Assembly: GCA_049969675.1 (NCBI GenBank)
Contig: JBMFOP010000026.1
Span: 1 to 33,227, forward strand
From: Myxococcota bacterium
GTDB lineage: Bacteria > Myxococcota > SpSt-1050
Direction of reading: 5' to 3'
Length of the DNA: 33,227 bases
This document shows positions 423-26,012 of this stretch, in pieces. A program made the translations under genes and the position numbers. Position 1 is the first letter of the stretch, and every line of letters starts with the position of its first letter. The notes under the pieces are model-generated. The model made no database searches and was not told the origin of the DNA. It saw nothing but the letters and a program-made list of their open reading frames with translations.

Positions 423-2690
423 ATGAGGAATGTATTATTATCTATGCCTTTTTTAATAATTTTAATATCAAATCTTTATGCCGATAATGGACTTAGTGTA
501 ACCCTTGAAGAGGTTCAGAGGGCTATTATTGAGAACAATCTATATTGGACGGCTTCAGAGACAATCTATACAAAGATGACCCCTGAGCAGAGGAAGTCCG
601 TATTTGGTCTCATTATCCCACGGGGATACAAGTCGCCCAAAAGTAATATTGCATCTACATTGAAGATGTCGCTTCCAGCCACATTTGATTGGAGAAATAA
701 TAATGGGAATTATGTGACTACTCCAAAGGATCAGGGGTATTGTGGGAGTTGCTGGGCATTTGCCTCAACCGGTGCCATTGAATCAAAGTATATGATTACA
801 AAGAAGTCACCCGGACTGAATATAGACCTTGCAGAGCAGATTCTTGTCTCCTGTGATATGTCTAATTATGGTTGTAATGGCGGTCTGCTTGCAAATGCAG
901 CATCATTTTTACAGGATAGTGGCATATATACTGAGTCCTGTTTCCCATACAACCCATCAACTTCAGACCCATCTTCAACAAGATGTTCTAAAGCCTGTGC
1001 AGATTACAGGAATAAAGTTAAATATTATAAGATTAAAGACTTTATTGGTGTTGCTCAGGATGTAAATGAGATTAAAGCTGCTGTATATCAATATGGCCCT
1101 GTGCCGGTCGGGATGATAGCGTGTGATGACTATCAATATTACAATAGCGGGGTATATAAGCATAGGAGTGGAAGTTGTAGCCCTGATTCAGGGCATGGGG
1201 TGCTTGTGGTTGGCTGGGATGATTATAATAACTGTTTTATCGTGAAGAATAGTGGTGGTAGATATTGGGGAGAGAATGGCTATTTCAGGATAGATTATAG
1301 TGAGGTAAGGGATTGCTATGATTCTTCTCGTGAAACCTTTACCTGCACGAGCTTCGGTCAGATGGGAGTTGCATATGGAGATGTGGTGACTGATGCAGAT
1401 GCAGTTCAGGTTACCATTGCAACTGACCCAACCAGTCTAGAGCTAAATATTGATAATACTGTCTTTAAAGCACCGAAGACTTTTACCTGGATAGCAGGTT
1501 CATCGCATAGTGTAAATGTAAAGCCAGAGCAGAAGAGTGCCGATGGAAGATACAAATACTATTTTGATTCACGCTCAGATGGGAAAAATATGCTGGATGT
1601 AATAATTGCCCCATCTGTATCGTCTACAATTACATTTAAGTTTAAGACTCAGTATCAATTTAAGACCTCACTATCTGATGTAAATGCCGGAAAGGTGAGT
1701 CCCTACTGTTCCCCTGAGTGCTGGCTGGATCCAAATTCACCAATTACTCTATCAGCGACTGCAAATGCTGGCTACGAATTTACCGGTTTTACTGGCGATA
1801 TAACTACTACACAGAATCCGTATCAATTTACTATGTCAAAACCAACCTCAGTAGTTGCCAACTTTAAGAAGAGTTCGGTTACGACATATACAATCACGGC
1901 ATCTGCCGGTTCAAATGGGAAGATAGAGCCATCAGGGATAGTAAATGTCCCTCAGGGTGGTTCTCAGACCTTCATTATTACACCCAATCAGGGATATCAT
2001 ATTGACAGATTGCTTGTTGACGGGAATCAGGTTGCAAGTACAAACTCTTATACATTCTCAAATGTCACTTCAAATCACACAATCAGTGTCGCTTTCGCGC
2101 TCAATTCTGTTGAGACATATAAGATTGTTGCACAGGCTGGGGAGGGTGGAAGTATCTCGCCTTCAGGGACTATAACAGTGAGTAAGGGAGGGAGTCAGAG
2201 ATTTACTATTACTCCGTACTCCCAATATGCAATACAGAATGTTCTGGTAGATGGCAAATCACAGGGGAAGATATCCAGTTATACATTCTCAGGTGTAACG
2301 GCGGATCATCAAATTTATGCGGCATTTGAAAAGGTCTCTACACAGAAAGAGTATAAGAAGTTGAGCATTACATATAAAGGGAATGGAGGTGGAACAGTCT
2401 ATTCATATCCCTCTCAACTGAATTGCACAAAAGATTGTTCGGGTTGGTTTGAAAAAGGTGTTCAGGTGGTACTTACTGCTATACCTGATTCAAAGTCCAA
2501 CTTTGAGGGATGGAATATCGGGAGCTGTGGGAAGAATAAATCCTGCACAATCAGGATGGATTATGATATGCCAGTTACAGCCTATTTCTCCTTAAAAGAA
2601 GGGCAGATAGTTGATGATGGGAATACTGCTGAGAGTGCAAATGGAGAGGTCGTCCCTTCATCGGGCTGTAGTTGTTCGTATATAGAGTAA
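423..2690 (+). CDS. Secreted papain-family (C1A) cysteine protease with InlB-B-like/Ig-like repeats and C-terminal GCxC tail
   Basis: Signal peptide; LPATFDWR, DQGYCGSCWAF (Gln, catalytic Cys), GHGVLVVGW (His), KNS (Asn). Two TYxIxAxAG..G.I.PSG...YTFS.VT..H.I...F repeats; ends GCSCSYIE. ATG 423 preferred over TTG 417 because of GAGGAGG spacing. Confidence 0.9.
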   Translation: MRNVLLSMPFLIILISNLYADNGLSVTLEEVQRAIIENNLYWTASETIYTKMTPEQRKSVFGLIIPRGYKSPKSNIASTLKMSLPATFDWRNNNGNYVTTPKDQGYCGSCWAFASTGAIESKYMITKKSPGLNIDLAEQILVSCDMSNYGCNGGLLANAASFLQDSGIYTESCFPYNPSTSDPSSTRCSKACADYRNKVKYYKIKDFIGVAQDVNEIKAAVYQYGPVPVGMIACDDYQYYNSGVYKHRSGSCSPDSGHGVLVVGWDDYNNCFIVKNSGGRYWGENGYFRIDYSEVRDCYDSSRETFTCTSFGQMGVAYGDVVTDADAVQVTIATDPTSLELNIDNTVFKAPKTFTWIAGSSHSVNVKPEQKSADGRYKYYFDSRSDGKNMLDVIIAPSVSSTITFKFKTQYQFKTSLSDVNAGKVSPYCSPECWLDPNSPITLSATANAGYEFTGFTGDITTTQNPYQFTMSKPTSVVANFKKSSVTTYTITASAGSNGKIEPSGIVNVPQGGSQTFIITPNQGYHIDRLLVDGNQVASTNSYTFSNVTSNHTISVAFALNSVETYKIVAQAGEGGSISPSGTITVSKGGSQRFTITPYSQYAIQNVLVDGKSQGKISSYTFSGVTADHQIYAAFEKVSTQKEYKKLSITYKGNGGGTVYSYPSQLNCTKDCSGWFEKGVQVVLTAIPDSKSNFEGWNIGSCGKNKSCTIRMDYDMPVTAYFSLKEGQIVDDGNTAESANGEVVPSSGCSCSYIE

Positions 2691-2692
2691 TT

Positions 2693-3391
2693 TTATTTCA
2701 GTGGTCTCATATACTTCTTGCTATTGGGGAAGAGTCTCTTTATTCTATCTGCAATCTTCCTCTCCTTCTCTTTCTGACCTGTTTTTTGATAAAATTCTCT
2801 TAACTTTGTGAGATATAATTCGTTTTCTGGATGATTATTTACAAGTCCTAATATCTCCTTTTCAGCCCTCATATATTCCTTATTTTCTGAAAGCAGATTG
2901 ATAATCTTTAATATAAGTGTGCTGCTTCTCATCTCAACTGGAATTGATTCATAATAAGAGATTGCTGATTTAAAATCGCCTTTATCGGCATAGATTGAGC
3001 AGGCTCTAATCAGGGCATCTGTATAAGCCGGTCTGAGGGCAATTGCCTTATCGTATAGTTTGAGTGCCTCATCTGGTTTCTTCCCTTCGAGGAATAGCCC
3101 TTTATAAAAGTAGAATCTGGGATTATCTATCAGAAGTCCCTCTGCTTTGATGAGATTCTCTGATATCTCATCTTCAGGGCATTCAATATATATACAATTT
3201 GCCGCATACTCCAGATAAAACAGCCCCCAATCGGTATATTTGACTGTCAACTCCTTTAATAGTCGCCTCGCCTCCATCCTCTTCCCCTGTTCAATAAGTG
3301 TTAGTGCTTCTTTGTATTGTGCGAGAGGTTCGGTGGCATATAAATTCCCAGAAATAATCAGGGCAAATATTATTGAGAGGAATCTTTTCAC
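2693..3391 (-). CDS. TPR-repeat protein with signal peptide
   Basis: TPR-like helices (YFYKGLFLEGKKPDEALKLYDKAIALRP); hydrophobic N-terminus; GTG start. Confidence 0.8.
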   Translation of the reverse strand: MKRFLSIIFALIISGNLYATEPLAQYKEALTLIEQGKRMEARRLLKELTVKYTDWGLFYLEYAANCIYIECPEDEISENLIKAEGLLIDNPRFYFYKGLFLEGKKPDEALKLYDKAIALRPAYTDALIRACSIYADKGDFKSAISYYESIPVEMRSSTLILKIINLLSENKEYMRAEKEILGLVNNHPENELYLTKLREFYQKTGQKEKERKIADRIKRLFPNSKKYMRPLK

Positions 3392-3401
3392 AAAAGAGGC
3401 A

Positions 3402-4496
3402 TTAAATTACCTGTTCAACCCACTCATAAGGGTCGGGCTTTAAGCCGTATTGCAGGTCCTGAATGTAATCAAACAACTTCTTTGAAAGTTCACCTACCTG
3501 ATTGTTGGCGATTGAATAGTTCTTTCCTTTATAGTAGAGTTCTCCAACTGGTGAGATAATTGCTGCTGTGCCGGTTCCAAATATCTCCTTTACCTCTCCC
3601 TTTTCTATGTGATGAATGAGTTCATCAATTGATAAGAGCCTCTCAGAGACCTTATACCCCCAATCTCGGGCAATCCTGATGACCGAATCGCGGGTGATAC
3701 CGGGGAGAATTGAACCGGTGAGTGGAGAGGTAATAATTTCATCATTGATGTAGAAGAATATATTCATTGTCCCTACTTCCTCTACATATCTCATATTTAT
3801 TGCATCCAGCCACAAAACCTGTGTAAATCCGAGTTGTTTTGCCTCCTCAGCTGCATACAGGCTATGGGCATAATTTGCGGCGGTCTTTGCCTCTCCCAAT
3901 CCACCTCTTACGGCCCTTACATACTTATCTGCGACATATATCTTGACTGGATTGAATCCCCCTGGATAATATGACCCGACGGGACCGACTATGATAAAAA
4001 ACAGATAAGTGTTTGAGGGCCTGACTCCGAGTGCTGGCTCTGTGGCAATCATTGTTGGTCTGATATAGAGTGCCCTCCCTGTCCCGTATGGTATCCAATC
4101 TTTTTCAATCTTGATCAACTCCTTTAGTCCCTTCAGTGCGGAATCTATATCTATTCGTGGCATACAGAGTCTCTTCGCAGACCTGTTAAATCTCTCAAAA
4201 TTATTTCTGGCTCTGAATAAATATATATGGTCATCTTTCCCTCTATATGCCTTCAAACCTTCAAATATTGCCTGCCCATAGTGGAATACCATCGCAGCCG
4301 GGTCCATTGGTAGCTCAGCATAAGGCACAATTCTTGCGTTATTCCAGCCATGGTCTTTGGTATAGTCCATCAGAAACATATGGTCAGAAAAATACTTTCC
4401 AAATCCGAGTTCATCCTTTTCATTCTCCTCATATTTTAATTTTGGTTTTGGTTTTAACTGGCTCTCCGGCCTCTTTTCAATTTTGATATTTATCAT
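3402..4496 (-). CDS. ilvE: Branched-chain amino acid aminotransferase
   Basis: FHYGQAIFEGLKAY, LYIRP, AKTAANY (PLP Lys), EEVGTMNIFF, ILPGITRDSV, FGTGTAA; AGGAGG RBS. Confidence 0.96.
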   Translation of the reverse strand: MINIKIEKRPESQLKPKPKLKYEENEKDELGFGKYFSDHMFLMDYTKDHGWNNARIVPYAELPMDPAAMVFHYGQAIFEGLKAYRGKDDHIYLFRARNNFERFNRSAKRLCMPRIDIDSALKGLKELIKIEKDWIPYGTGRALYIRPTMIATEPALGVRPSNTYLFFIIVGPVGSYYPGGFNPVKIYVADKYVRAVRGGLGEAKTAANYAHSLYAAEEAKQLGFTQVLWLDAINMRYVEEVGTMNIFFYINDEIITSPLTGSILPGITRDSVIRIARDWGYKVSERLLSIDELIHHIEKGEVKEIFGTGTAAIISPVGELYYKGKNYSIANNQVGELSKKLFDYIQDLQYGLKPDPYEWVEQVI

Positions 4497-4687
4497 TGAT
4501 ATTCCTCCTGAAAGAAGATAAGGATTTTATTAAGATGTAATCTTCGCTCTGTCAATCTTAAAAAGGCATAAAAAAAAATATTGTCATTTTGCGAAAATTT
4601 TAGATTTAAAATTTTATCTATTATCATTGACAGGGAGGCAATTTTATTCTTACTTATTACCCGCTATCTAACTCAGGAGGACTGTGT

Positions 4688-5176
4688 ATGCAGACAAATG
4701 GAGAGTTTAAGTTTTTTGGGAGGGAGACCGTGGAACATACAATGGGTGACCCCTCTCAGGTAATTCCACTTCTGCAGATGGTACAGGAGAAGGAGGGTTA
4801 TGTGCCTGAGAGAGCCATTGAGGAGATATCTGAAATCACGGGAGTCTCTGTAAGTAATATATTCTCTGTAATTACCTTCTATAAGCAGTTTCGTCTAAGA
4901 CCACCCGGAAAATTTATAATAAGGGTCTGCGATGGAACGGCCTGTCATGTAAATGGTGCAAGGACCCTTCTGGATATACTCAATGATGAATTAAGACTTG
5001 AAGGTAGCGATACCACAGAGGATGGGCTATTTACAGTTATGCCAGTCGCCTGTCTGGGCTGCTGTTCCCTTGCTCCAGTTATTATGGTCGGTGAGGATAC
5101 ACACGGAAAACTAACGCCACAGAAGCTCAGAAGGATTATCAGGGATTACCAGAAGAAGGGCAAAGAGAGTAACTAA
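4688..5176 (+). CDS. nuoE: NuoE/HydC-like [2Fe-2S] subunit (BfuC/NfnC-like)
   Basis: VCDGTACH...ACLGCC thioredoxin-like 2Fe-2S motif; TFYKQF; AGGAGG RBS. Confidence 0.9.
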   Translation: MQTNGEFKFFGRETVEHTMGDPSQVIPLLQMVQEKEGYVPERAIEEISEITGVSVSNIFSVITFYKQFRLRPPGKFIIRVCDGTACHVNGARTLLDILNDELRLEGSDTTEDGLFTVMPVACLGCCSLAPVIMVGEDTHGKLTPQKLRRIIRDYQKKGKESN

Positions 5177-5187
5177 AAGGAGGAAAG

Positions 5188-6951
5188 ATGTATAAGATAA
5201 CAGTAGGGATGGCTACCTGCGGCATCTCTGCAGGGGCTGACAGGGTTTATAAATCATTGGAGAGTCTATTAAAGGGTAAGGCAGATGTATCATTGCATAC
5301 AACAGGGTGTATGGGGATGTGTTATAAAGAGCCTCTTGTTGAGATATTTGATGGTAAGACAAAATATCTATATGGAGATGTGGATGAGAAGAAGGCTCAG
5401 AAGATATTTGAGTCTCATATTGTAAATAATATCCCTGTTGAAGAGCTGATTGTCCTCAGGGATTATAAGAGTGGAACAGAGCAGGAGTTTAATGAGAGAC
5501 AGTATAAGATTGTGCTACGAAATTGTGGAATGATTGACCCCGATTCAATAGAAGAATATGAATTGAGAGATGGATACAAAGCAATAAAGAAGGTCCTCTC
5601 CTCAATGACACAGGATGAGGTGATTGATGTGATACTTAAATCTGGACTCAGGGGAAGAGGTGGGGCTGGCTTTCTGACGGGCCAGAAGTGGAAATTTGCA
5701 AAATCATCTATTGCTGACCAGAAATATGTAATTTGCAATGCTGATGAAGGGGACCCGGGCGCCTTTATGGATAGGTCTGTGCTGGAGGGGGACCCTCACT
5801 CCGTGATAGAGGGTATGATGATATGTGGATATGCAATAGGTGCCACTCAGGGTTATATTTATTGCAGGGCTGAATATCCGCTCGCGGTTAAGAGATTAAA
5901 GAAGGCGATTAAGTTGCTTGAGGAGCGAGGTTATCTGGGAGATAACCTATTCGGTTCCAACTTCTCGTTCAGGATAAAACTGAAAGAGGGTGCAGGAGCC
6001 TTTGTCTGCGGTGAGGAGACAGCGTTGATGCAATCCATTGAAGGGAAGAGAGGGACGCCGAGACCGAGGCCACCGTATCCAGCAGTGAAAGGACTATGGG
6101 GGAAGCCGACCAATATAAACAATGTTGAGACATTTGCAAATGTACCTTGGATTATACTGAATGGTTGGGAGAAGTTTGCCTCTATGGGAACGGAGAAGAG
6201 CAAGGGGACCAAGGTCTTTGCAATAGCGGGGAAGGCGGTGAGGACCGGACTGGTTGAGGTCCCAATGGGTATTACCATCAGGGATGTGGTCTTCAATGTG
6301 TGTGGTGGGATAAAGGATGGGAAGAAGTTCAAGGCGGTTCAGATGGGCGGACCATCGGGTGGTTGTATACCCGAATCCCTTGCAGATACACAGATTGATT
6401 ATGAGCAGATTACAAAGACCGGTGCGATAATGGGCTCCGGTGGACTGGTTGTAATGGACGAAACTACCTGTATGGTGGAGATGGCGAGATTCTTTCTAAA
6501 CTTTACTCAACTTGAGTCCTGTGGAAAATGCACATCCTGTCGTATAGGGACATTGAGAATGCTTGAAATCCTGGAGAGGATTGTATCCGGTAAAGGTGAG
6601 GAACAGGATATAGAGAGATTACAGGAACTTGGGGATTTTATCAAGAAGACCTCTCAGTGCGGACTCGGACAGACGGCGCCCAATCCAGTGCTTACAACAA
6701 TTAAGTACTTCCGTGATGAATATGAGGCACATATAAAGGAGAAGAGATGTCCAGCACATTCCTGTGGTGCACTCGTAAAATATACTATCATTCCAGAGAA
6801 ATGCACGGGTTGTATGATATGTGCCAGACAGTGTCCGGCGAGTTGCATAAGTGGAGAGAAGAAGAAGCCACATGTAATAGACCAGAGTAGGTGTACGAGG
6901 TGTGGTAAGTGCTTCACAGTCTGTACATTTGATGCAATCTACAAGGATTAA
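5188..6951 (+). CDS. nuoF: NuoF/HydB-like FMN/NADH-binding subunit with N-terminal thioredoxin-like domain and C-terminal 2x[4Fe-4S] (BfuB/NfnB-like)
   Basis: SGLRGRGGAGF, CNADEGDPGAFMDRS, GAGAFVCGEETAL, GGPSGGC, ESCGKCTSCR, CTGCMICARQC, CTRCGKCFTVC. Confidence 0.92.
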   Translation: MYKITVGMATCGISAGADRVYKSLESLLKGKADVSLHTTGCMGMCYKEPLVEIFDGKTKYLYGDVDEKKAQKIFESHIVNNIPVEELIVLRDYKSGTEQEFNERQYKIVLRNCGMIDPDSIEEYELRDGYKAIKKVLSSMTQDEVIDVILKSGLRGRGGAGFLTGQKWKFAKSSIADQKYVICNADEGDPGAFMDRSVLEGDPHSVIEGMMICGYAIGATQGYIYCRAEYPLAVKRLKKAIKLLEERGYLGDNLFGSNFSFRIKLKEGAGAFVCGEETALMQSIEGKRGTPRPRPPYPAVKGLWGKPTNINNVETFANVPWIILNGWEKFASMGTEKSKGTKVFAIAGKAVRTGLVEVPMGITIRDVVFNVCGGIKDGKKFKAVQMGGPSGGCIPESLADTQIDYEQITKTGAIMGSGGLVVMDETTCMVEMARFFLNFTQLESCGKCTSCRIGTLRMLEILERIVSGKGEEQDIERLQELGDFIKKTSQCGLGQTAPNPVLTTIKYFRDEYEAHIKEKRCPAHSCGALVKYTIIPEKCTGCMICARQCPASCISGEKKKPHVIDQSRCTRCGKCFTVCTFDAIYKD

Positions 6952-6963
6952 TGGAGGTTTATT

Positions 6964-9900
6964 ATGGCAAATTCAGTCAAGATTAAGATAAATGGAAAAG
7001 AGATAATTGCCGATTCATCAAAGACAATTTTAAATGTGGCGAGAGAGAACGGGATTGATATCCCTACACTCTGCTATGACCCGCGACTGCCACCTTATGG
7101 TAGCTGCCTTGTCTGTGTGGTAGAGCTCAGGAATCAAAACAGGGTGGTAATGTCCTGTACAACTCCGGTGGCTGAAGGGATGGATATCTATACAGACTCT
7201 GAGATGGCAGTTGATTCAAGAAGTAAGGCATTATCAATGTTGCTCTCAAATCACTATGCCGATTGCAGGGGACCCTGTTATGTAAATTGTCCGGCTAATG
7301 TGGATGTTCAGGGGTATCTGGCACTTGCAAATGCCGGGCTCTATTATGAGGCGCTTGAACTGATAAGGGAGACGAATCCGATGCCACTTACCTGTGGGAG
7401 GGTATGCGTCAGGTACTGTGAGGCAAACTGTCGTAGAAAGGATATAGATTCACCAGTCGCTGTAAATATTATGAAGAGGTATGTCTCCGACCTTGAATAT
7501 GACAGGCTTCCCCCGCCAAAGATTACACCCAAAAATGGTAAGAAGGTGGCGATTGTAGGAGGTGGACCGTCTGGACTCACCTGTGCATACTATCTCGCCA
7601 AGGAAGGATATTCGGTAACTATCTACGATAAGCAACCCAAACTCGGTGGTATGCTCAGATATGGAATCCCCGAATATAGACTTCCTCAGGCAGTTCTGGA
7701 TAAAGAGATAAATTATCTATTGGCTCATGGGATTGAGGCAAAAAATAATGTAAAGATTGGAACTGATATTACACTATCTCAACTCAGAAAGGAGTATGAC
7801 GCTGTCTATATAGCAGTTGGTGCGTGGGCCGCCAAGCCTATGGGGATTGAGAACGAGAATCATCCATCGGTTCTATCTGGAATAAAGTACCTTGAACAGG
7901 TCAAAAGGGATGTGCCACCTGATTTCTCTGGTAAGGTAGTGGTTGTTATCGGTGGAGGAAATACAGCGATAGATGCCTCAAGGACCGCCCTTAGATGTGG
8001 GGCAAAACATGTAGCAATCCTGTACAGAAGGACCCGTAATGAGATGCCAGCCGACCATGATGAGGTGGAGGATGCACTTGCCGAGGGAGTTGAGATTCAA
8101 TTTCTTATCGCTCCTAAGAGGGTTTTAGTAGAGGGGGAGAGGCTTAAAGGGATTGAGTGCTATAGAATGGAGCTCGGTGAACCGGATGCCTCCGGCAGGA
8201 GGAGCCCTATACCTGTTAAAGGCTCAGAATTTATCTACGAATGTGACTATATTATCTCAGCCATTGGACAGGAGCCGGTTCTGGACTTTGCTGAAAGTCT
8301 TAAGGTTACAAAGTGGAAAACAATTGAGGCAAGTCCGGAGACCTATGCCACAAATATTGAAGGTGTCTTTACAGGTGGAGATGTGTTTACCGGTCCGATG
8401 GCGGCGATAGATGCAATAGGTGCCGGGAGAAAGGCTGCAATGGTAATTGACTCTTATATCAGAACCGGTAGGATTGAAAAGTTCAAACAGGAGTTCTTAT
8501 CCAGAAAGACAGTTGTGGCAGAATTAGATAAGTCATTTTTTGAATCCCAGCCAAAGATTGAACGTACCAGAATTCCAAAGAGTGACCCGAAGGAGCGAAT
8601 ACACAACTATGAAGAGGTTGACCATATAATCACAAAGGATATGGCAGAGAGGGAGACGATGAGATGTCTCTCCTGCGGATGTAACTCTGTCTTTGATTGC
8701 GACCTGAAGGTATTCTCGGGTGAATATGCCGCGAGACAGGATCTGTATCACGGTAAGGCAAAGAGATACAAGGTAGATGATAGACATCCTTTTATCATTC
8801 TTGATGCAAACAAGTGTATTCTGTGCGGCAGATGTGTCAGATATTGTAGTGATGTAATAGGAATAAGCGCCTTAGGGTTTGTAAACAGAGGATTTGATAC
8901 TGTTGTAAAGCCGGCACTTGATAAACCTCTTCAGGAGACCACCTGTATCTCCTGTGGAAACTGCATTGAGGTCTGTCCTACAGGTGCCATTGTGCATCGG
9001 ATTATTGCCAACAGACCCGGCCCATACAGAACCATTCCAGCCGATTCTATCTGCTCTTTCTGTTCAGTTGGATGTAATATAATCGTAAACCATGTTGGCA
9101 GGGAGATATTCTACATAAATGGAAAGCAGAGAGAGAAGTACATTGAACCCGAACTCTGTGCAAAGGGTCGTTTTGGAACTTATTATATAAAAAGCAAGGA
9201 CAGATTGTATTCTCCAATTTCAAGAGGTAGCAAGACAGATATCAACAATGTCGTGGTTGAACTATCTCAGGCTCTAAAGGATATAAAGTCAGAGAGTACG
9301 GTCATTGTGGTCTCAGAGAGGATGTCTGTAGAGGAATATTATCTTATTGGAAGTATAGCCTCAAGGCTTGGTATCAAGAATATAATCTCAGCAAACGAAC
9401 TATATCAGAACAATCTGATGGTTTTAGCCGAATTTATTGGCTCAAATATTACTCTTGCCAGAAGGGATGATGTTAGTTCCTCAGAATATATCCTTATCTT
9501 TGGAAATCAGGGGACAATCTCCTATACAAAGGTGCTGGGATTTGATATCAAGAAGGCTGTATCAAATGGCGCAAAACTTATCTGGGTAGGTGAGGGCTCT
9601 CAGGAGTTCAGGAAGTATATCTCAAAGCAGATTGAGACGAAGAGGATTGCAGAGTTTGTAAATGGGGTTGTAAAGAAGTTGATAACTGATGGTAAGTTTG
9701 TAAAAGATGCACAGAAAATATCTGGATTTGAGGAACTAATGAGATTTTCATCAGAAGAGAATGAGGAGAGTGGATCTGTTGCAGAACTCCTATCAGACAG
9801 TTCAAAGAAGATTATAGCAATATACAACCCTGATTATATTTACGGAAACAATTACAATGACTTTGGTGCGATTCTCAATCTCTTAATTCTGACAGGCAGG

Positions 9901-10518
9901 ATACAGAATGGACTGCTCATCCCGAGGAATGAGAGCAATGGGTTAGGATATAATGATGTCATTAAATCCAGAAAGGCTCAATTTACTGACCTATCTGCCC
10001 AGAGCAATGCAGTGAAGTTGATAAAGGATAAAAAGGCATCAGTGATTATCACATTCAATGTGGATATCAGTGATAAGGTAAATTACAAGCCCGAGCTACT
10101 CATTGCATTTGATATGTTTGAAAATGATTTAAGCAGGATGGCGGACTTTGTGATTCCCACATCTCCAAACCTTGAATCCGAGGGTTCATTTGTGAGCTAT
10201 GATGGTGTGCTCTATAAATATGATAGAGTCTTCAATCCTCTTGCGGGTTATACAACATTTGATGCTTTAAGCAGTCTCTTCAGGGCAATAGGTGGATCCA
10301 ATCAACCCTTAGAATCGGTTAGAATGTCCATATCAGGACTGATTTCTGAATATTCAAAGCTCAAAGAGAAGAACAAAGGATTCTCCATTCTGAGGGAGAT
10401 AAAGGTTACCTCTTTTATAAAGATGAATAACTCTCCATTTACCCCGATGCCCTATAAGTGTAGAACTACATATTCTATTGTTGCAGAAAATACCCTCCCT
10501 AAAAAGCCAACAAAGTAG
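6964..10518 (+). CDS. Fused NuoG/HydA-type Fe-S + GltD-like FAD/NADPH + degenerate molybdopterin-oxidoreductase protein (BfuA/NfnA-like)
   Basis: N-terminal 2Fe-2S (TLCY..GSCLVC..SC); GltD domain (PCYVNCP, CGRVCVRYCEANC, GGGPSG, GGMLRYGIPEYRLP, GGGNTAID, YRR); CILCGRCVRYC, CISCGNCIEVC; CSFCSVGC..LCAKG; FdhA-like C-terminus without catalytic Cys/Sec. Confidence 0.85.
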   Translation: MANSVKIKINGKEIIADSSKTILNVARENGIDIPTLCYDPRLPPYGSCLVCVVELRNQNRVVMSCTTPVAEGMDIYTDSEMAVDSRSKALSMLLSNHYADCRGPCYVNCPANVDVQGYLALANAGLYYEALELIRETNPMPLTCGRVCVRYCEANCRRKDIDSPVAVNIMKRYVSDLEYDRLPPPKITPKNGKKVAIVGGGPSGLTCAYYLAKEGYSVTIYDKQPKLGGMLRYGIPEYRLPQAVLDKEINYLLAHGIEAKNNVKIGTDITLSQLRKEYDAVYIAVGAWAAKPMGIENENHPSVLSGIKYLEQVKRDVPPDFSGKVVVVIGGGNTAIDASRTALRCGAKHVAILYRRTRNEMPADHDEVEDALAEGVEIQFLIAPKRVLVEGERLKGIECYRMELGEPDASGRRSPIPVKGSEFIYECDYIISAIGQEPVLDFAESLKVTKWKTIEASPETYATNIEGVFTGGDVFTGPMAAIDAIGAGRKAAMVIDSYIRTGRIEKFKQEFLSRKTVVAELDKSFFESQPKIERTRIPKSDPKERIHNYEEVDHIITKDMAERETMRCLSCGCNSVFDCDLKVFSGEYAARQDLYHGKAKRYKVDDRHPFIILDANKCILCGRCVRYCSDVIGISALGFVNRGFDTVVKPALDKPLQETTCISCGNCIEVCPTGAIVHRIIANRPGPYRTIPADSICSFCSVGCNIIVNHVGREIFYINGKQREKYIEPELCAKGRFGTYYIKSKDRLYSPISRGSKTDINNVVVELSQALKDIKSESTVIVVSERMSVEEYYLIGSIASRLGIKNIISANELYQNNLMVLAEFIGSNITLARRDDVSSSEYILIFGNQGTISYTKVLGFDIKKAVSNGAKLIWVGEGSQEFRKYISKQIETKRIAEFVNGVVKKLITDGKFVKDAQKISGFEELMRFSSEENEESGSVAELLSDSSKKIIAIYNPDYIYGNNYNDFGAILNLLILTGRIQNGLLIPRNESNGLGYNDVIKSRKAQFTDLSAQSNAVKLIKDKKASVIITFNVDISDKVNYKPELLIAFDMFENDLSRMADFVIPTSPNLESEGSFVSYDGVLYKYDRVFNPLAGYTTFDALSSLFRAIGGSNQPLESVRMSISGLISEYSKLKEKNKGFSILREIKVTSFIKMNNSPFTPMPYKCRTTYSIVAENTLPKKPTK

Positions 10519-10782: not shown

Positions 10783-13239
10783 TCACTCAATTAGGTTACA
10801 TCCACAGCCCCCTTCATCACTCTCCTGTTGGGGTTTATTTAAGTCTGATCTCTTTTTTGAGACATCTTCATAATAAAAAATAACATCTTCTTGAAAAATT
10901 CCATTGTCAATAATCATTGTGTCCTCTGCAATGGTATCTTCAATAGCATATGTGTCATTAACTGGTATCTCTTCTGCTCTATGGTCTCTACCAGGGGTAT
11001 CTTCAACATTTGTATCTGAATATGATGTGTCTTTATAGGGGTTAGAATCTATACCGACATCTGTGGTAGAACCAATTATGTTGATTACAAAATATACAGG
11101 TATCAAATCCTCTGCCTTCTCAGGTAGTATAGTTCTATTCCTCCCGGTCTCTACGGGCGATTCACCATCCCATGCTGCTAAATAATAGTAAATCTTCTTC
11201 GCTGTAATAAATGCGGCACTTATCTTTGCCTCAAAGACTGAATTACCCTTATCTATCATATTGATTGTCTTCATTATTGAATCACCTTCGTTTTTATATT
11301 TGATATTTGCCGCCTGAATCTTTCCACTGTCATCTGTGATCTTTGCAGATATGATAATATCCTCACCTGCATTTGCTGTGGTAACCGGTGTATGAATAAT
11401 TACTGGTGGGGTATTTGGCCTTGTAATAGAGATTACAAAATATTGCGGATTTGTACTGTCCTCTGCCTTCTCGGGGAGAACGCTCCTGTTTACACCAGTC
11501 TGTACAGGCGATTCACCATCCCACGCCGCTAAATAATAGTATATCTTTGAGGATGTTATTGATGCTGCTGGAATTTTTGCCTCAAAATTTCCAGACCCTT
11601 TATCTGTCATCGCAATGGCAGTAAAATTTGCATCTGATTCATTCTTAAATCTAAGTGTGGCAGCGGCGATTGTTCCTCCGTCATCTGTAATCTTTGCGGT
11701 GATAAGTATGTCCTTCCCACTATCAGCGGTGGTGACAGGTGTGTGTGAAATTACTGGTGGTTTATTAGTTGGAACAGAGTCGTCAACTATGGCATTATAT
11801 CTTATTGCATCATATCCGTCATTCTCAGCCGGTGTCCTGACTGTATATCCCACTCCCCAATAGCCAGAACCAGCATAGGATTCTACCATATCCCACTTTC
11901 CGTCCGGGCGGAATCCAACAAATAATCTAATGTGAGAACCAGTGTCATTGAGTGCATCTGCAGGCTTGAGCTCTGATTTGTTAATCTTTGTTGCTATTTG
12001 CATAATGGTGGAAGTTCCATATTTGGTGGTCTGTTTCCATAGCCTTGAAACAAAACCGGAGCAGTCAACACCCACAGAACAGGATGAACCACAGGCAGAG
12101 GTTCCATCAGCATATTTTGTCTGTATATCCCCGGCCTTTTTGCAATCAGATAATCCCTGGTCAAACTGGGATATTGTGGAGAATCCTCCCCACGAATATG
12201 GGAATCTATTATTTGTCCCTACCACTACCCAGGAGGGTGGTTTGATAGTCTTGGTCTTATTACACCAATCGGTGCAGGTGGTTGTGCCTACATTACAGGA
12301 TTTTGCAGTCCATATGTGGTCATTATATTGTTTTGCAAGATTCAGCGCCTCTGACCTCTTCACCGGTGTTAGAGCCAGAAGTCTCTGTTCATAATTGATA
12401 TTTTCATTATATTCATAGATCTTTTTAGTCCATTCAGATATTGTAATACTCCCACCAGCAAAGGTGTCAAATTTGTACATCTTTATTCCAGCTTTATCCG
12501 ATGCCAGAACAAAAATATTGTTTTCATAAATCTTTATATCTTTTACATCATTAAGGAGAAATCTATTTGGCAAAAATATCTCTGAAATGATATCTCCCCT
12601 CTGGTTTATCACTTTTATAACTCTACTTCTTCCCATATCAAATTCTACGGCAATAATAAGCAAATCATTAATTAGACCAATAGGTGTAATTGCTGCAATA
12701 TTATCCCTGTCCTGATATGAGAAGGTGCTTATTGTATTCTCTTTATATATCTTTATCTGGGCAAGATGTGGATTTTCAATAATTGCGTCCATCAATATAT
12801 CTTTGAAGGCATATTTTTCAAATCTATTAATTGGATAGAAGAGATTATTTGAATACAAAATGCCAGACAGGGTCTCCACACCATATAATTTTCCAATCTT
12901 AATCAGGGATTTGTTCACAATCTGATATTCTGTACCATCTCTTGTAAATAGAAATGTCCTCTTAAAATGTCTTTCAATGAATATCGCCTCGTCTGGAATA
13001 TTCTCAATGGAGTATCTATAAATTCCACTCTCATAGATATCTATTGAATGATTAAAATTATTAAGCAGTCCAATCTCAGAGTCATCCACATAAAAGTCTG
13101 ATATCCCATAAACCCCGTCTGGAGTTGTAAAATAGTTTATATTTTGTTCTCCCCATTTGATATCCAGAATCGGTGTGGAGTTGAGTGTTATGGGGGAGAA
13201 GAGTAAAACTATTGCAAAAATAATCTTGATTCTATTCAT
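10783..13239 (-). CDS. Secreted NlpC/P60-like cysteine hydrolase with two tandem ~117-aa domains and C-terminal GCxC tail
   Basis: Signal peptide; PYSWGG...GVDCSGFVSRLW...SHIRLF...ES (Cys/His/Glu); tandem PPVIxHTPVTTA domains; acidic linker; ends GCGCNLIE. Confidence 0.75.
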   Translation of the reverse strand: MNRIKIIFAIVLLFSPITLNSTPILDIKWGEQNINYFTTPDGVYGISDFYVDDSEIGLLNNFNHSIDIYESGIYRYSIENIPDEAIFIERHFKRTFLFTRDGTEYQIVNKSLIKIGKLYGVETLSGILYSNNLFYPINRFEKYAFKDILMDAIIENPHLAQIKIYKENTISTFSYQDRDNIAAITPIGLINDLLIIAVEFDMGRSRVIKVINQRGDIISEIFLPNRFLLNDVKDIKIYENNIFVLASDKAGIKMYKFDTFAGGSITISEWTKKIYEYNENINYEQRLLALTPVKRSEALNLAKQYNDHIWTAKSCNVGTTTCTDWCNKTKTIKPPSWVVVGTNNRFPYSWGGFSTISQFDQGLSDCKKAGDIQTKYADGTSACGSSCSVGVDCSGFVSRLWKQTTKYGTSTIMQIATKINKSELKPADALNDTGSHIRLFVGFRPDGKWDMVESYAGSGYWGVGYTVRTPAENDGYDAIRYNAIVDDSVPTNKPPVISHTPVTTADSGKDILITAKITDDGGTIAAATLRFKNESDANFTAIAMTDKGSGNFEAKIPAASITSSKIYYYLAAWDGESPVQTGVNRSVLPEKAEDSTNPQYFVISITRPNTPPVIIHTPVTTANAGEDIIISAKITDDSGKIQAANIKYKNEGDSIMKTINMIDKGNSVFEAKISAAFITAKKIYYYLAAWDGESPVETGRNRTILPEKAEDLIPVYFVINIIGSTTDVGIDSNPYKDTSYSDTNVEDTPGRDHRAEEIPVNDTYAIEDTIAEDTMIIDNGIFQEDVIFYYEDVSKKRSDLNKPQQESDEGGCGCNLIE
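11075..11766 (-). repeat. Intragenic tandem duplication of a ~351-bp (117-aa) domain
   Basis: NKPPVISHTPVTTA... (from 11766) and NTPPVIIHTPVTTA... (from 11415) share KIYYYLAAWDGESPV and LPEKAED. Confidence 0.9.
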
Positions 13240-15426: not shown

Positions 15427-16779
15427 TTAGAATAGAACATTACATTCACAGCCTGCAAGGTTATTTAACTCCTCAATTAAATCTACATCGGATGTTGAAC
15501 TCTGATCTGTATCTTTGGAAGGTGATGTCCCTGTATCTTTAATACTGGATATATCTGTTATGCCTGCATCAATTGTCCCTGAACGGGGCATACAGGCTCC
15601 ACTCTCATTTGTGAGCGTTACACATTTATCATCTGAGGGACATTTTGGTGATTTGGGGTCACATTCATAATAACATTTCCCATAGTCATCTCCAGCTTTA
15701 GCCGCTACACATATAAGTCCAGATTTACATTCATCTAATGTATAACAGGTCTCTCCCAGCTCCTTTGGCGCATTCTGGATGTTGCACTCATCTTTCTCTG
15801 GCCAGCAGCCTCCACCTCCACTTTCAATCTCTGTGCAGTAATATCCTGATGGACAGTTACTGCTTGAGACAACGCAGTATCTTGAACAGATAGAGAGATT
15901 TCCGTCAGTCAGGCAGAGCTCCGATGAACAGTCCTTTGAGCTTTCACAGGGTTTGCATAGGTCTGATAAATTATCTCCGGGGAAGCAGTATGAGTTGCCA
16001 TCTGTTGCCTCAAAACACTTATATCCATTGGGGCAGCTCCCTATCTCACCAACATTACAGATCTGAGAACACATACCCGAATCCCCATTAGAGACACAGA
16101 TATTGCTTTTGCAATCTGAACTGTATTCACATACCGAACCGAATGTACCCTTTGAAGAGGATGAAGTGGAAGGATAAAGAAAACAGATGCCTTTTATATC
16201 ATCATCTTCTATCGTTCTTTGATTGGTATCACCCATATTTGAATAAGGATACATTGTAGCCCCATATACCATTGTGTGGTCAAGCCCAAAGAAGTGTCCA
16301 ATCTCGTGCGTTGCAATATTCTGAAGATCCATCTTCCCTTTTTCACCTGTTGTGGACCACTTAAAATCGGCTGCATTAAATCTTATATCTGCATCTTTAA
16401 TATATCCATCTGAATATGTTGCAGGGGTGCATACAGCAATAGTGCCATATCCACCCAATTCATCAGGCCATTTCCCTGTTATAAAGAATAAATTATTTAT
16501 AAAGTCGGTCGGAGTTGCGGTCTTTGAGTTTGTCCTGCCAGCATATTGAGTACTTATGTAAGTACAGTCTGGTTTGGACCATTCCTCAAATGAGAGTTTA
16601 ATAGCATTAATTACATCACTTTCATTTAAACCCGAATCCGCTGGATTTATATAGTATTTCACAGGAAGATTTGAATCCTCCCACCTGGCAGAAGAACCAT
16701 CAGGGTTTTTAATGGTATTAAAGCCTGATAGTAGTAAGAATGAAAATATTACACTCAAAAAATTCCATCTCATTGACAT
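15427..16779 (-). CDS. Secreted matrixin-like (M10A) zinc metalloprotease with Cys-rich repeats and C-terminal GCxC tail
   Basis: HEIGHFFGLDH zinc motif, ATMYP Met-turn; three C-x5-C-S-x2-C Cys-rich modules; ends GCECNVLF; ATG 16779 follows AGGAG. Confidence 0.88.
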   Translation of the reverse strand: MSMRWNFLSVIFSFLLLSGFNTIKNPDGSSARWEDSNLPVKYYINPADSGLNESDVINAIKLSFEEWSKPDCTYISTQYAGRTNSKTATPTDFINNLFFITGKWPDELGGYGTIAVCTPATYSDGYIKDADIRFNAADFKWSTTGEKGKMDLQNIATHEIGHFFGLDHTMVYGATMYPYSNMGDTNQRTIEDDDIKGICFLYPSTSSSSKGTFGSVCEYSSDCKSNICVSNGDSGMCSQICNVGEIGSCPNGYKCFEATDGNSYCFPGDNLSDLCKPCESSKDCSSELCLTDGNLSICSRYCVVSSSNCPSGYYCTEIESGGGGCWPEKDECNIQNAPKELGETCYTLDECKSGLICVAAKAGDDYGKCYYECDPKSPKCPSDDKCVTLTNESGACMPRSGTIDAGITDISSIKDTGTSPSKDTDQSSTSDVDLIEELNNLAGCECNVLF

Positions 16780-16784
16780 AATCA

Positions 16785-16810
16785 CAACTCCTGTTATCAA
16801 CTCCTGTTAT
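16785..16810. repeat. Perfect 13-bp tandem duplication (CAACTCCTGTTAT x2) containing the RBS
   Basis: 16785-16797 and 16798-16810 are identical; minus strand reads ATAACAGGAGTTG twice. Confidence 0.9.
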
Positions 16811-21786: not shown

Positions 21787-21789
21787 TTT

Positions 21790-22383
21790 ATGAATGTTAT
21801 ACAAATTGGATTACTCCTTTTATCCTATGTGGGGGGGTCTATCCCTTTTGGACTGATATTTGCAAAGATATTTTCAAATAAGGATATCAGGAGGATTGGT
21901 TCCGGGAATATCGGGACAGCAAATGTAATAAGAAATGCTGGACTTCTTGCAGGGCTTCTGACCTTCCTATTTGACTTCTTAAAGGGGTTGATTCCTGTTC
22001 TGGTCGCACTTCATTATTATAATGTTTTACTTGGAGTACTTGCCGGATTTATGGCTGTAACAGGACATATCTTCCCGATATTTTTAAGGTTTTCGGGAGG
22101 GAAGGGGGTTGCTACGGCATTTGGTGTTGTACTGGGACTCAATTATCTGACTGCGCTGATCTCATTTGGAATCTTTATCCTGATGATTGTAATATTCAGA
22201 ATCTCCTCTTTATCATCTCTTGTAGCGACTCTTTCCAATCTGTTACTGAATATATTTGTTGCCTTTGATAAATATATTGTTCTCCTGAATATCCTCCTCC
22301 TCCTTCTTATATTTTTCAGGCATAGGGAGAACATAAAAAGACTGATTTCAGGTACCGAACCGAGGATGTGGGGAAGGAGTTGA
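21790..22383 (+). CDS. plsY: Glycerol-3-phosphate 1-O-acyltransferase
   Basis: GSIPFG, DIRRIGSGNIGTANVIR, DFLKG, GHIFPIFLRFSGGKGVAT, RHRENIKRL. Confidence 0.96.
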   Translation: MNVIQIGLLLLSYVGGSIPFGLIFAKIFSNKDIRRIGSGNIGTANVIRNAGLLAGLLTFLFDFLKGLIPVLVALHYYNVLLGVLAGFMAVTGHIFPIFLRFSGGKGVATAFGVVLGLNYLTALISFGIFILMIVIFRISSLSSLVATLSNLLLNIFVAFDKYIVLLNILLLLLIFFRHRENIKRLISGTEPRMWGRS

Positions 22384-22386
22384 GAT

Positions 22387-23979
22387 ATGAAGAGGATAGG
22401 TAGAGTCATAATAGCCTGTTTATCTCTATTATTAATGGAATTTCCACTGCATTCGGAGGAGAGTAATGATTCAAATTGGAAGGATGAGGCTCTGTTTTAT
22501 ATTTTTAGTATGAATAATCGTTTTGAAATAAAGAGAAACTTCTTAAATTCTGAAAAGCCAGATGCCCTTTCATTTTCAGATAAGACCACAGGATATTATT
22601 TATATGCGGGTGGGACACTAATGTGGTTTATATCAGATGCACTGGATTTTAATCTCTCTGTAAACTCGGGAATACTTAAATTGAAAAATATATATTATGA
22701 AAATAAAGAGACCTACACAACTATAAATAATGAGAGTGCCACCGAGTATGCAAGGAAGAGTCTCTTCATTGATGAACTTTATATTGAATATGATGATTCA
22801 TTTAAGTTGGGATTGGGGAAGGCCAATACTACTGTTGCAACAGATTTTGTCTTTAATGACTATGTCTTCTTTATCAGAACAGATTTTTATCTCTATAAAC
22901 AGGCAAAGAGGCGTCTGACATTGGGGATTCAATTCAATACTGTAGATGGTTCTTTTACGACCGATTATAAGAGTTCACCCATGCTATCCGCAGATATTTC
23001 ATATAAAGATGGAAAGAGGTTTAATATCTCACTCTTTTCGCTCTTTCTATATGACAATGACAGTGCATTTGGAAAGATCTATGAACCATTTATTGAGGCA
23101 TTTGTGGTGAAAAAATTAAAGGAGGCTGGACAGGATACCTCACAACTCTGTGGTGGTGATATATCCGGGTGCATAAAGGCTGATAGCAATGGTTATCTCC
23201 TGTGGGGAGGGGTTGACTTAAAGGGCAAATATAATGCATTTTCATATAAGTTGGATATTATTTTGAATTATGGAGATATGGAGATAGTGCCCTATCTGGA
23301 TATAAATGGTCAGATTATAAATATTTATAATAAAAAGAAGATGAGTGGAAAGGTTATTCAATATCTAAAATATGGAGATACTGATATGGGAGGGACATCA
23401 GGGGGAGGCACCACTGCTTATGGGAGTTTGTTGAACAAAGAATTGAGCAATAAGAAGATACTTGGCTACCTGATATATTCGGAGGTAGGTTATAAATTCA
23501 TCAAACTCCTTGAGTTATCCCCTTACTTTCTCATTATGAGTGGCGAGAACAACCTGGAGAAGAGTGGATACCTGAATTCATTTGTATCCGTTAAGTCATA
23601 TATTACCACCTCAAATATATTCTTTAATGGCGGATTGAATGAGACTGCCTCATCCCGAAACTTTTCACTTTCTGGAGTAAATGGGAGGGGTATAATCAGT
23701 GCTGGTATATGGCTTAGATTAAAAGAAGATGATTCTCCTTTTAAGATGAATTTAGGGGCGATGAAATTTTATTCACAGAGTTCAAATATAAACAATAAGT
23801 ACGATTATGGAACAGAGATAGACTTTGTCACGAGTTATGGATTTACAAAATTTCTGGAATTGAGCCTTGAGGCAGACTATTTTATTGTTGGAGATTTCTT
23901 TAAGACCGATACAGAGTCGGTGAAAAATCCGTTCAAATTGCTATTGGGACTGAATCTATATCTGGACAATTTAGATTGA
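22387..23979 (+). CDS. Outer-membrane beta-barrel protein (alginate-export-like C-terminus)
   Basis: Signal peptide; amphipathic strands; YGTEIDFVTSYGF...ADYFIVGDFF C-terminal pattern. Confidence 0.65.
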   Translation: MKRIGRVIIACLSLLLMEFPLHSEESNDSNWKDEALFYIFSMNNRFEIKRNFLNSEKPDALSFSDKTTGYYLYAGGTLMWFISDALDFNLSVNSGILKLKNIYYENKETYTTINNESATEYARKSLFIDELYIEYDDSFKLGLGKANTTVATDFVFNDYVFFIRTDFYLYKQAKRRLTLGIQFNTVDGSFTTDYKSSPMLSADISYKDGKRFNISLFSLFLYDNDSAFGKIYEPFIEAFVVKKLKEAGQDTSQLCGGDISGCIKADSNGYLLWGGVDLKGKYNAFSYKLDIILNYGDMEIVPYLDINGQIINIYNKKKMSGKVIQYLKYGDTDMGGTSGGGTTAYGSLLNKELSNKKILGYLIYSEVGYKFIKLLELSPYFLIMSGENNLEKSGYLNSFVSVKSYITTSNIFFNGGLNETASSRNFSLSGVNGRGIISAGIWLRLKEDDSPFKMNLGAMKFYSQSSNINNKYDYGTEIDFVTSYGFTKFLELSLEADYFIVGDFFKTDTESVKNPFKLLLGLNLYLDNLD

Positions 23980-23994
23980 GATTATATTTCCTGT

Positions 23995-24023
23995 TTGCAA
24001 TAAGGTCCAAATATTGATAAGAT
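23995..24023 (+). promoter_or_regulatory. Sigma70-type promoter with extended -10
   Basis: TTGCAA-17 bp-(TG)n TAAGAT upstream of AGGAGGAG and ATG 24051. Confidence 0.45.
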
Positions 24024-24050
24024 TAATCTGCTTATTCAGGAGGAGATAGG

Positions 24051-26012
24051 ATGAAAAGAATCTCTATTATCACTCTGGTTTTTATGCTATTGGCTACCGT
24101 TACAAATGCTGAATGGAAAGCCATCTTTACACAGATGGGGAATAAAAATGGCTGGGCAGGTATAGAGGTCTTTGATGAAAACAGTATTTCTATGACGGGC
24201 GTTATGGACAATATGGGAAATTCACAGCCGATTTTAGGATATTCATCTGATGGTCAGAATGTATCAATGGGTCAACCACCACAAAATACAGATGCACAGA
24301 TGAGTATCTTCTTCTTCCTGTCTGGTGCTGGCACAAACGGTTTCCTTGCCGGTATGTCACTTCTAAAGGGGTTCCCTCCTCCAATTATAATTGATGTGGC
24401 AAAATCAACAAATAAGGGTAAAAATTTTAGCCTTCAGAAAGGTGCACTCCCCGGCTCAAAGAATATGTCAGCATCAGCAATATATTTTTCAGACCCTATG
24501 ACCGGATGGATTGTGGGCGGCGGAGATAAGACTTATTATCTGGCTTCAACAAAAGATGCCGGCGCAACATGGGAGGAGAATACTACATTTTATGCATTCA
24601 GAGATAAGATATCTGTAAATAACATCTTCTTTATCAATGATAGAGTCGGCTGGATTGTCGGAGGTGATAATGGTGAACGGAACAAGGAGACCGGAGAATA
24701 TACAAGAAATCCCTCATCTGGTTTTATTGCGGTATCAACCGATGGTGGAAAGACATTTAAGAACATATATGAGAATAGCAATTTTACCATAAATGCTGTT
24801 CACTTTGTTGATTGTCAGATTGGAATAATTGCAGGATATGACGCCGCAAAGGCTTATGTGTTGTATACTTCCGATGGGGGCAAGACATTTACACAGAGCG
24901 GCGATTTGAAAATACCTTACGGTAGCAAGACAGTAGATGCAGGATATGTATCAGCGCTGCAACTCCTGAATTCAAAGGATGGTTTTTTAGGGGCAAATTA
25001 TATAACAGACCCCAGTGGTGAATCCTGTGCACCGGCGGTATTTAAGACCTCTGATGGAGGAAAGAGCTGGGTAATAGATGATACATATTCAGCAGGTCTT
25101 ACCGGTATTGCCAGATACGCCTGTATATATGGTATGAAATTCTACTCTGAGAAGGTAGGATATCTGGTAGGACAGCATCTATTGGTAGCAAAATATACCA
25201 ATGAAAATGGTTCATCGGAGAACCATAGATGTGTAGAGTGTATGCTCGGTAAGTGCCACAGGCAGGAGGTTCCGGATGCCGGACCTGATGTAGTAACTCC
25301 AGATATTGTCTATCCCGATGGTGAGACCCCGGACACGATTGAAGATACCGGGACGGTCATTACCTGTCCATCAGATAAGATTCTGCCGATGACGGATTCC
25401 AGGATATGTTTCAGCAATGCCACAGAGAGTTCAATCTCACAATTTAAGGCAAATATAGGATTTGCTGAAATCATAAACGGGACATCCTTTGTCGCATATA
25501 TAATTGGAGAGAAAGAAGGTATGACTCTTGCAGAGGCAAGGGATGCGGCAAATAATAAGACGGAGGATGTGGATTATATCAGGCTCTCAATCTCTCCATC
25601 TATGAAGGTATCTGAGATGTACGGTTTTTCAAAAATAAAATTTGTTGGCTCAAATATCTCGGCACAGATAGTCTATGACGATTTATATCAGATTTTAAAG
25701 ATTAAAGGACTTGAAGCGGATATTATGGATTCCGGTAATCAGAAGAAAGGGGGTATTACCATGAATCTTGAGGTCCCTGTTCTTACAGCCAGACAGTTGA
25801 GCAATGCCTCTCTCAACCTGATTGATGAGATATGCAATCTAAATAGACAGAGTTGCCAGAGTTCCATAGAAGATACTGGAGTAATTATTGGAGAAGATGG
25901 AGAGATTATAAATCCTGATGGTGCGACTCCATCTCTGGATGCTCACTCAGTGTCAGATGGCTCAAAGGGAGCCTCTTCCTCAGATGGTTGTAGTTGTACA
26001 ACATTATTTTGA
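24051..26012 (+). CDS. Secreted BNR/YCF48-like beta-propeller protein with C-terminal GCxC tail
   Basis: Signal peptide; Asp-box repeats (STNKGKNF, TKDAGATW, STDGGKTF, TSDGGKTF, TSDGGKSW) with GWIVG; acidic linkers; ends GCSCTTLF. Confidence 0.82.
   Translation: MKRISIITLVFMLLATVTNAEWKAIFTQMGNKNGWAGIEVFDENSISMTGVMDNMGNSQPILGYSSDGQNVSMGQPPQNTDAQMSIFFFLSGAGTNGFLAGMSLLKGFPPPIIIDVAKSTNKGKNFSLQKGALPGSKNMSASAIYFSDPMTGWIVGGGDKTYYLASTKDAGATWEENTTFYAFRDKISVNNIFFINDRVGWIVGGDNGERNKETGEYTRNPSSGFIAVSTDGGKTFKNIYENSNFTINAVHFVDCQIGIIAGYDAAKAYVLYTSDGGKTFTQSGDLKIPYGSKTVDAGYVSALQLLNSKDGFLGANYITDPSGESCAPAVFKTSDGGKSWVIDDTYSAGLTGIARYACIYGMKFYSEKVGYLVGQHLLVAKYTNENGSSENHRCVECMLGKCHRQEVPDAGPDVVTPDIVYPDGETPDTIEDTGTVITCPSDKILPMTDSRICFSNATESSISQFKANIGFAEIINGTSFVAYIIGEKEGMTLAEARDAANNKTEDVDYIRLSISPSMKVSEMYGFSKIKFVGSNISAQIVYDDLYQILKIKGLEADIMDSGNQKKGGITMNLEVPVLTARQLSNASLNLIDEICNLNRQSCQSSIEDTGVIIGEDGEIINPDGATPSLDAHSVSDGSKGASSSDGCSCTTLF

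Follow-up and report, generated by a model that had tools for sequence, protein, structure and literature searches.

A short C-terminal cysteine tag, almost certainly derived from MYXO-CTERM, on exported proteins of one order of Myxococcota

Why should four unrelated exported proteins, encoded on both strands of one piece of bacterial DNA, end in nearly the same eight residues? The DNA is contig JBMFOP010000026.1 of a Myxococcota bacterium (assembly GCA_049969675.1); all 33,227 nucleotides form the window considered here. An earlier note, written from the window alone, summarized the shared ending as G-C-x-C-x-x-[IL]-[EF] and took it for a separate new protein-sorting system. Comparison with related tails gives another answer: the tag is almost certainly derived from MYXO-CTERM, being the front of that signal after loss of its transmembrane (TM) helix and Arg cluster. 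MYXO-CTERM (TIGR03901) is processed by myxosortase (MrtX, MrtC, or MrtP; core model NF040914) (bioRxiv 10.1101/2023.06.07.544157; PMC11980579, available in part).

The tag is present on four of the 25 non-overlapping open reading frames (ORFs) of at least 100 residues in the window, with exactly the coordinates and translations claimed. GCSCSYIE* (2664-2690, plus strand) ends carrier 1, an exported papain-family (C1) cysteine protease of 757 residues with InlB-B-type repeats (417..2690; PF00112, PF18998), for which the ATG at 423 is a likelier start than 417. GCGCNLIE* (10783-10809, minus strand) ends carrier 2, an exported protein of 818 residues with two Ig-like repeats (10783..13239; PF11896); it belongs to no clear family, and a weak NF008096 match (E 0.059) points to a probable NlpC/P60-type peptidase domain. 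GCECNVLF* (15427-15453, minus strand) ends carrier 3, an exported matrixin (M10) metalloprotease with Cys-rich repeats (15427..16800; PF00413). Carrier 3 is related to the myxosortase-dependent MXAN_2677/2678 family, scoring 85.7 bits against model NF041905, below its cut-off of 250. GCSCTTLF* (25986-26012, plus strand) ends carrier 4, an exported BNR/Ycf48-like beta-propeller protein of 653 residues (24051..26012; PF14870, PF02012). As the earlier note had it, the four are non-homologous: they fall into separate homology clusters and separate families.

Its forecast of many more tags elsewhere also held. The genome containing the window (G000, in which the window is contig C26) comprises 3.05 Mb in 188 contigs, with 38.9% GC and 99.9% completeness; counts refer to a mechanically defined proteome of 2323 non-overlapping ORFs of at least 100 residues. 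The pattern GC.C occurs 69 times in this set, 30 of them exactly at position -8 from the stop, where 0.09 would be expected from the internal frequency. A looser terminal pattern, [GS]-C-x-C-x-a-a-X, in which Ser may replace Gly and one more residue may be present, identifies 35 ORFs (about 0.3 expected). These represent 22 homology clusters, mostly hydrolases: C1, M10, M4, M36, M64, and S8 peptidases; GH15 and GH25 enzymes; an amidase; and acid phosphatases. Others are adhesin-like proteins with vWA and Ig domains. A hydrophobic N-terminus is found in 33 of the 35 carriers, compared with 790 of 2219 other 5'-complete ORFs (odds ratio 30, Fisher p 6e-13), scored by a crude hydropathy proxy rather than SignalP; enrichment among exported proteins thus bears out the earlier expectation.

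The form of the tag is equally regular. Both Cys residues are invariant (35/35), Gly precedes the first in 32, and the second is followed by four residues in 33 tags and by five in two, so that the distal Cys sits at -5. The consensus is an acidic/Ser linker, then S-S-G-C-[SG]-C-[SNT]-[ILVT]-[ILV]-[E>F,Y]-COOH. In the motif first proposed, the register and Cys spacing were right, and the permitted residues too narrow: where four residues follow the second Cys (33 tails), the last position is held by E in 23, by F in 4, by Y in 3, and by D, N, and W in one each. The linker is indeed rich in acidic residues, Ser, and Thr (D 15% vs 6%, S 13% vs 7%). The CaaX-like shape that had been noted, with Cys, an aliphatic pair, and a last residue X at the free C-terminus, stands.

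Evidence for descent comes from relatives: three further genomes of the same genus (G001-G003) and one from a sister family in the same order (G004), which together with G000 make five order genomes. The G004 orthologue of carrier 3 (54% identical) has SCECSAVG, then a TM helix and RRRQ, in place of GCECNVLF. Likewise, the G004 homologue of carrier 4 (30% identical over 701 columns) has GGCTCAV, then a TM helix and an Arg cluster. The G004 counterparts of carriers 1 and 2 are helix-less: orthologues of carrier 1 in G001-G003 and G004 all lack the helix as well, and the tag of carrier 2 is kept in its G002 and G003 orthologues and replaced by a longer helix-less tail in G004. A profile made from the 35 tails finds 29 hits in G004: 23 terminal helix-less tails with 4-16 residues after the CxC, two with helix and Arg cluster, and one internal, leaving out three that lie in short frames. 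TIGR03901 has four matches in G004. Judged from these tails, G004 appears to be an intermediate stage, with variable short tails against the fixed four residues of the genus. In one G004 protein (L121, on C313) a helix-less GCGCTTL motif is internal: 152 residues separate it from the stop, and another domain comes after this short tag.

Matrixins provide a broader comparison. Homologues elsewhere in the phylum end in GCxC, helix, and RR. The 150 best library representatives divide into 117 with Cys, TM helix, and basic residues, six helix-less, and 27 other or unclassified by rule, many of which are canonical by eye. A quick tree, from which eight near-identical rows were left out, places ten of 11 helix-less rows with one helix-bearing row in a single branch (SH-aLRT 92); the remaining one, P0212, stands apart on a long branch. 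Aliphatic residues occupy positions +4 and +5 in 66% and 97% of tags, compared with 21% and 9% of 34 full CxC matrixin tails, two sets that differ in base composition. The aliphatic pair is present also in the full copies of the order, and therefore probably predates helix loss.

Could the short tails be spurious, created by assembly errors that introduce premature stops or by stops that are read through into a helix? This is effectively ruled out. All three stop codons are used (TAA 15, TGA 11, TAG 9), in proportion to the genome; in-frame continuation past the 35 stops reveals no helix and Arg cluster; and 11 orthologues from the other three species of the genus keep the register of the stop, ten exactly and one a residue later. 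The chance of such an artefact or recoding is practically negligible. Nor is it at all probable that the tails are decaying relics, helix loss having merely freed the enzymes for secretion. The variable tail lengths in G004 do resemble repeated truncation. Against this stand the two invariant Cys residues and the fixed length, the recurrence of one form across 22 unrelated families, and the comparison of 11 orthologue pairs, in every one of which the tag is more conserved (identity 0.5-1.0) than the preceding 30 residues (0.2-0.6, ungapped). Conservation would thus seem largely to refute the relic reading.

How widespread is the helix-less form? The terminal tag, written as a DNA pattern, matches 32, 27, 44, and 44 times in G000-G003 (controls 0-2), and is at control level (0-9 vs 0-11) in 37 other genomes of the phylum. 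TIGR03901 shows the mirror image across these 41 genomes, with matches in none of the four genus genomes at E<=0.1 and in 35 of the 37 others. Applied to 401 genomes of the phylum, with at most the best 20 candidates scored per genome, the profile of the 35 tails finds 10-20 matches in each of the five order genomes and one or two in 40 others. Among 25 of these outside loci, all ten in long clean frames go on to a helix with an Arg cluster; a further 14 are in frames no longer than 213 residues, and one has an internal stop. In this sample, therefore, the helix-less form appears confined to one order. The MYXO-CTERM and myxosortase content of the phylum members also points to Myxococcota as the phylum. 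Genomes of the phylum without TIGR03901 matches were considered as further helix-less lineages, and G005 and G015 were rejected: their matrixins carry divergent full tails, and the tag profile finds nothing in G005, G011, G015, or G020. Two helix-less tails were seen outside the genus: P0212 (GCSCSILEE), possibly an independent helix loss, and P0112 (GGGCSVVSVGI), with a single Cys.

Despite descent and likeness of working, the tag is not filed as a member of MYXO-CTERM, because two of the three defining parts and the hidden Markov model (HMM) fail. The signature motif with its invariant Cys near the C-terminus is there, as are many unrelated carriers with signal-peptide-like N-termini. The TM helix and the Arg-rich cluster are absent, the stop falling four or five residues after the CxC in all 35 tags. 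None of the 35 tails passes the curated TIGR03901 cut-off, or matches any other NCBIfam model, CTERM models included (the outcome is the same for four longer tails); the best TIGR03901 score in G000 is 11.3 bits, against a cut-off of 20.

That best score marks the only helix-bearing MYXO-CTERM in G000, which is internal. It lies in a fusion protein of 3704 residues (C48:13684-24798, minus strand; L142) that joins a Cys-rich adhesin to a TraB-like barrel/OmpA part and so is TraAB-like. The internal copy reads GGGCQCSVMD, acidic spacer, helix, and RR, followed directly by a second signal-peptide-like stretch; this layout suggests that a single gene gives rise to two proteins, each sorted separately. 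Its first eight residues (GCQCSVMD) fit the tag consensus. The copy is conserved in G000, G001, and G002, and did not turn up in the loci examined from G003 and G004. The arrangement is that described for MXAN_5598 in the available part of PMC11980579.

What machinery might act on the tag? The sole PF02517 match in G000 (C85; L001:1471-2127, minus strand) is a myxosortase, scoring 115.9 bits against the NF040914 core model (cut-off 100) and falling below the subtype cut-offs of MrtX, MrtC, and MrtP. Together with the full MYXO-CTERM tails seen in orthologues, this speaks against the proposal of a separate system. The catalytic EExxxR, H, and HxxxN motifs are intact, and E127, E128, R132, H167, H203, and N207 are invariant. 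The structure model (predicted local distance difference test, pLDDT, 94.5) best matches MmRce1 (4CAD; TM-score 0.65, E 0.009). The earlier note saw no processing enzyme in the window and pointed to CPBP-type proteases; such an enzyme exists elsewhere in the genome, and the idea holds for three of the four genus genomes (G000-G002) and for G004, though not for G003. In the myxosortase tree the genus and G004 group weakly (65/21). Close relatives occur in two metagenome-assembled genome records labelled Bdellovibrio sp. and Deltaproteobacteria bacterium. An unclassified exported protein is a conserved neighbour (L001:2116-3102), shared by the genus, G004, and two further genomes of the phylum (L007, L017, L021); adjacency to ispDF is seen in the genus only.

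Other parts are present as well. The type II secretion (T2SS) components GspC, D, E, F, and G exceed their cut-offs in G000, and GspD is found in all five order genomes. At C4:291-2549 (L109), two tandem Lgt paralogues over the TIGR00544 cut-off stand behind an ORF that may be called lspA-like; the first has an insertion of about 40 residues with two Cys. The candidate of an Lgt special to the tag was rejected, tandem or multiple Lgt being usual in the phylum. Prenylation of the eukaryotic CaaX or CxC type is unlikely because PF00432 prenyltransferase has no match in the four genus genomes, in a search that was silent in the controls too.

Cysteines of the N-terminal kind were also noted. Some tagged proteins have a lipobox-like Cys near the N-terminus (C58:3288-5408 and C4:19999-21666; by eye, C102 and C38), and these may be anchored at both ends. 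Among 159 putative lipoproteins of G000 picked by a crude lipobox rule, 11 begin the mature protein with C-x-C, the commonest spacing of a second Cys (examples at C91:5901, C60:712, C30:5010, C78:8342, and C96:3587). This perhaps mirrors the C-terminal CxC, as a shared mark for double acylation or surface sorting.

These observations suggest a model that extends what is described for Myxococcus xanthus, where MrtX cleavage and surface anchoring require the Cys, loss of the whole tag releases TraA, and MYXO-CTERM proteins are displayed through the T2SS (available part of PMC11980579). The direct findings to which that model is added are descent, genome-wide use on exported proteins, conservation, and the presence of machinery. 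The tag is probably a Cys-dependent membrane or surface anchor. The carrier would cross the inner membrane by Sec; one or both Cys residues would be lipidated at the periplasmic face as the C-terminus leaves the translocon, most plausibly through diacylglyceryl transfer by one of the two tandem Lgt paralogues; the aliphatic a-a residues would replace the helix as recognition element; the retained myxosortase would then cut off the four residues that follow the distal Cys, as Rce1 removes aaX from CaaX; and the T2SS would deliver the hydrolase or adhesin, now anchored by lipid, to the surface of the cell. This full sequence of Cys lipidation, CaaX-like trimming, and surface display has about an even chance of being right. 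A further generalization is more tentative and falls a little short of that: a bacterial CaaX-like pathway, in which a helix-less, soluble peptide of eight residues suffices for periplasmic Cys lipidation and trimming by an Rce1-fold protease. Here an Lgt paralogue would act on an inverted, C-terminal substrate, and the pathway would have arisen as MYXO-CTERM was shortened in steps, from the full tail through short tails of variable length, as in G004, to the fixed four residues of the genus.

Several points weigh against lipidation, trimming, and display as proposed. Anchoring and lipidation of the tagged proteins are carried over from M. xanthus, where the enzyme that lipidates the MYXO-CTERM Cys is itself unidentified in the available part of PMC11980579. 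Since genomes across the phylum often have several Lgt copies, the tandem pair does not count as specific support, and no hydrophobic lipobox precedes the first Cys of the tag. In published models the TM helix holds the substrate in the inner membrane and contacts myxosortase (PMC11980579, in its available part; bioRxiv 10.1101/2023.06.07.544157); retention without a helix must therefore work differently, which is one weak point of the model. The fold match between myxosortase and Rce1 reaches only E 0.009. G003 has tags and no myxosortase match, in an assembly that is 85% complete and in 430 contigs. Finally, and this is the other weak point, the internal full copy alone could explain why myxosortase was retained.

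This last point leads to one rival explanation: the tag is a lipidated anchor that is never trimmed, and myxosortase persists because a few full MYXO-CTERM substrates, the internal fusion copy among them, still require it. The conserved element of CxC, helix, RR, and second signal peptide in G000, G001, and G002 favors it, as do the G003 result and the contact between signal and protease helices proposed by Haft (bioRxiv 10.1101/2023.06.07.544157). Nonetheless it seems unlikely: exactly four residues after the CxC in 33 of 35 tags and an aliphatic +5 in 97% fit recognition of a free C-terminus, as in CaaX, although a transferase could impose the same constraint on length and aliphatic character. 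Alternatively, no lipid is involved. The CxC could be a thiol handle, serving as a disulfide tether to an envelope partner or in metal binding or redox chemistry, or, together with the aliphatic end, a peptide signal that a receptor or the T2SS recognizes; the proteins would then be held by contacts with other proteins or set free. For the CXC end of DUF4266, a thiol or receptor role without lipid has been proposed (PMC8238504, available in part). Direct descent from MYXO-CTERM argues against such a role here, and no recurrent partner family occurs among 118 genes neighboring the carriers. Moreover, neither DUF4266 nor DUF3570 has a match in any of the five order genomes, a result that is partly uninformative since the controls were silent too. 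A role without lipid thus appears improbable, and lipidation with trimming by myxosortase is preferred.

Elsewhere in the window, an exported protein without the tag (27032-28282, plus strand) presumably resembles an M64 peptidase, judging from its HEFGH motif; by contrast, the M64 protein on G000 contig C126 is tagged. Another exported protein (29256-30353, minus strand) has two CxxCH motifs flanking an Asp/Gly/Tyr-rich repeat linker, and from weak matches is a probable diheme cytochrome c. The genes at 4688-10518 (plus strand) form a NuoE/NuoF-like/GltD-fusion operon.

Every Cys-type prokaryotic sorting signal in bioRxiv 10.1101/2023.06.07.544157 and the available part of PMC11980579 is tripartite, so an order that appears to sort dozens of proteins without a helix indicates that eight residues can be enough to hold the sorting information. 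Annotation that relies on HMMs overlooks the probable surface proteome of this lineage, while an intermediate stage survives in the sister family. According to Haft, no natural CaaX-like substrates of MmRce1 are known (bioRxiv 10.1101/2023.06.07.544157). Two points now become testable: the identity of the enzyme that attaches lipid to the Cys of MYXO-CTERM, and the existence of natural CaaX-like substrates for prokaryotic Rce1 homologues. If the model is true, the tag would be a physiological helix-less substrate for such a homologue and a minimal, portable tag for surface display.

How does the tag compare with known systems? Literature searches, with limited reach into subscription papers, found no description of the helix-less form. 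JDVT-CTERM and Synerg-CTERM, along with CGP-CTERM, are likewise C-terminal signals containing Cys, and have cognate CPBP proteases; unlike the tag, they are tripartite with a TM helix (bioRxiv 10.1101/2023.06.07.544157). A Pfam scan of the 35 tails returned only DUF4266 (PF14086; 2/35, best E 0.007), whose members are secreted and conserve a CXC at the C-terminus, likewise without a helix. DUF4266, however, is one small family in a flavinylation/thioredoxin cluster, whereas the tag is carried by unrelated proteins.

Likeness to MYXO-CTERM extends to the GCxC after an acidic/Ser/Gly linker; to the presence in each genome of dozens of unrelated hydrolases and adhesins exported by Sec, with orthologous carriers; and to a genome with a T2SS and a single-copy myxosortase (the latter in three of four genus genomes and G004). 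The tag differs in its lack of TM helix and Arg cluster, its want of any score against TIGR03901, and its end of fixed length, in which the distal Cys is followed by four residues that include an aliphatic pair and mostly close with Glu. With eukaryotic CaaX, CaaaX, and Rab CxC termini it shares a Cys near the free C-terminus followed by aliphatic residues, in a genome that encodes an Rce1-fold protease; five-residue CaaaX substrates of farnesyltransferase exist, according to a source available in part. Unlike those of eukaryotic CaaX, its carriers are exported rather than cytosolic, its distal Cys is at -5 rather than -4, and no prenyltransferase match accompanies it (controls silent). The likeness to CaaX and CaaaX is one of shape, by convergence from a MYXO-CTERM ancestor, and not one of homology.

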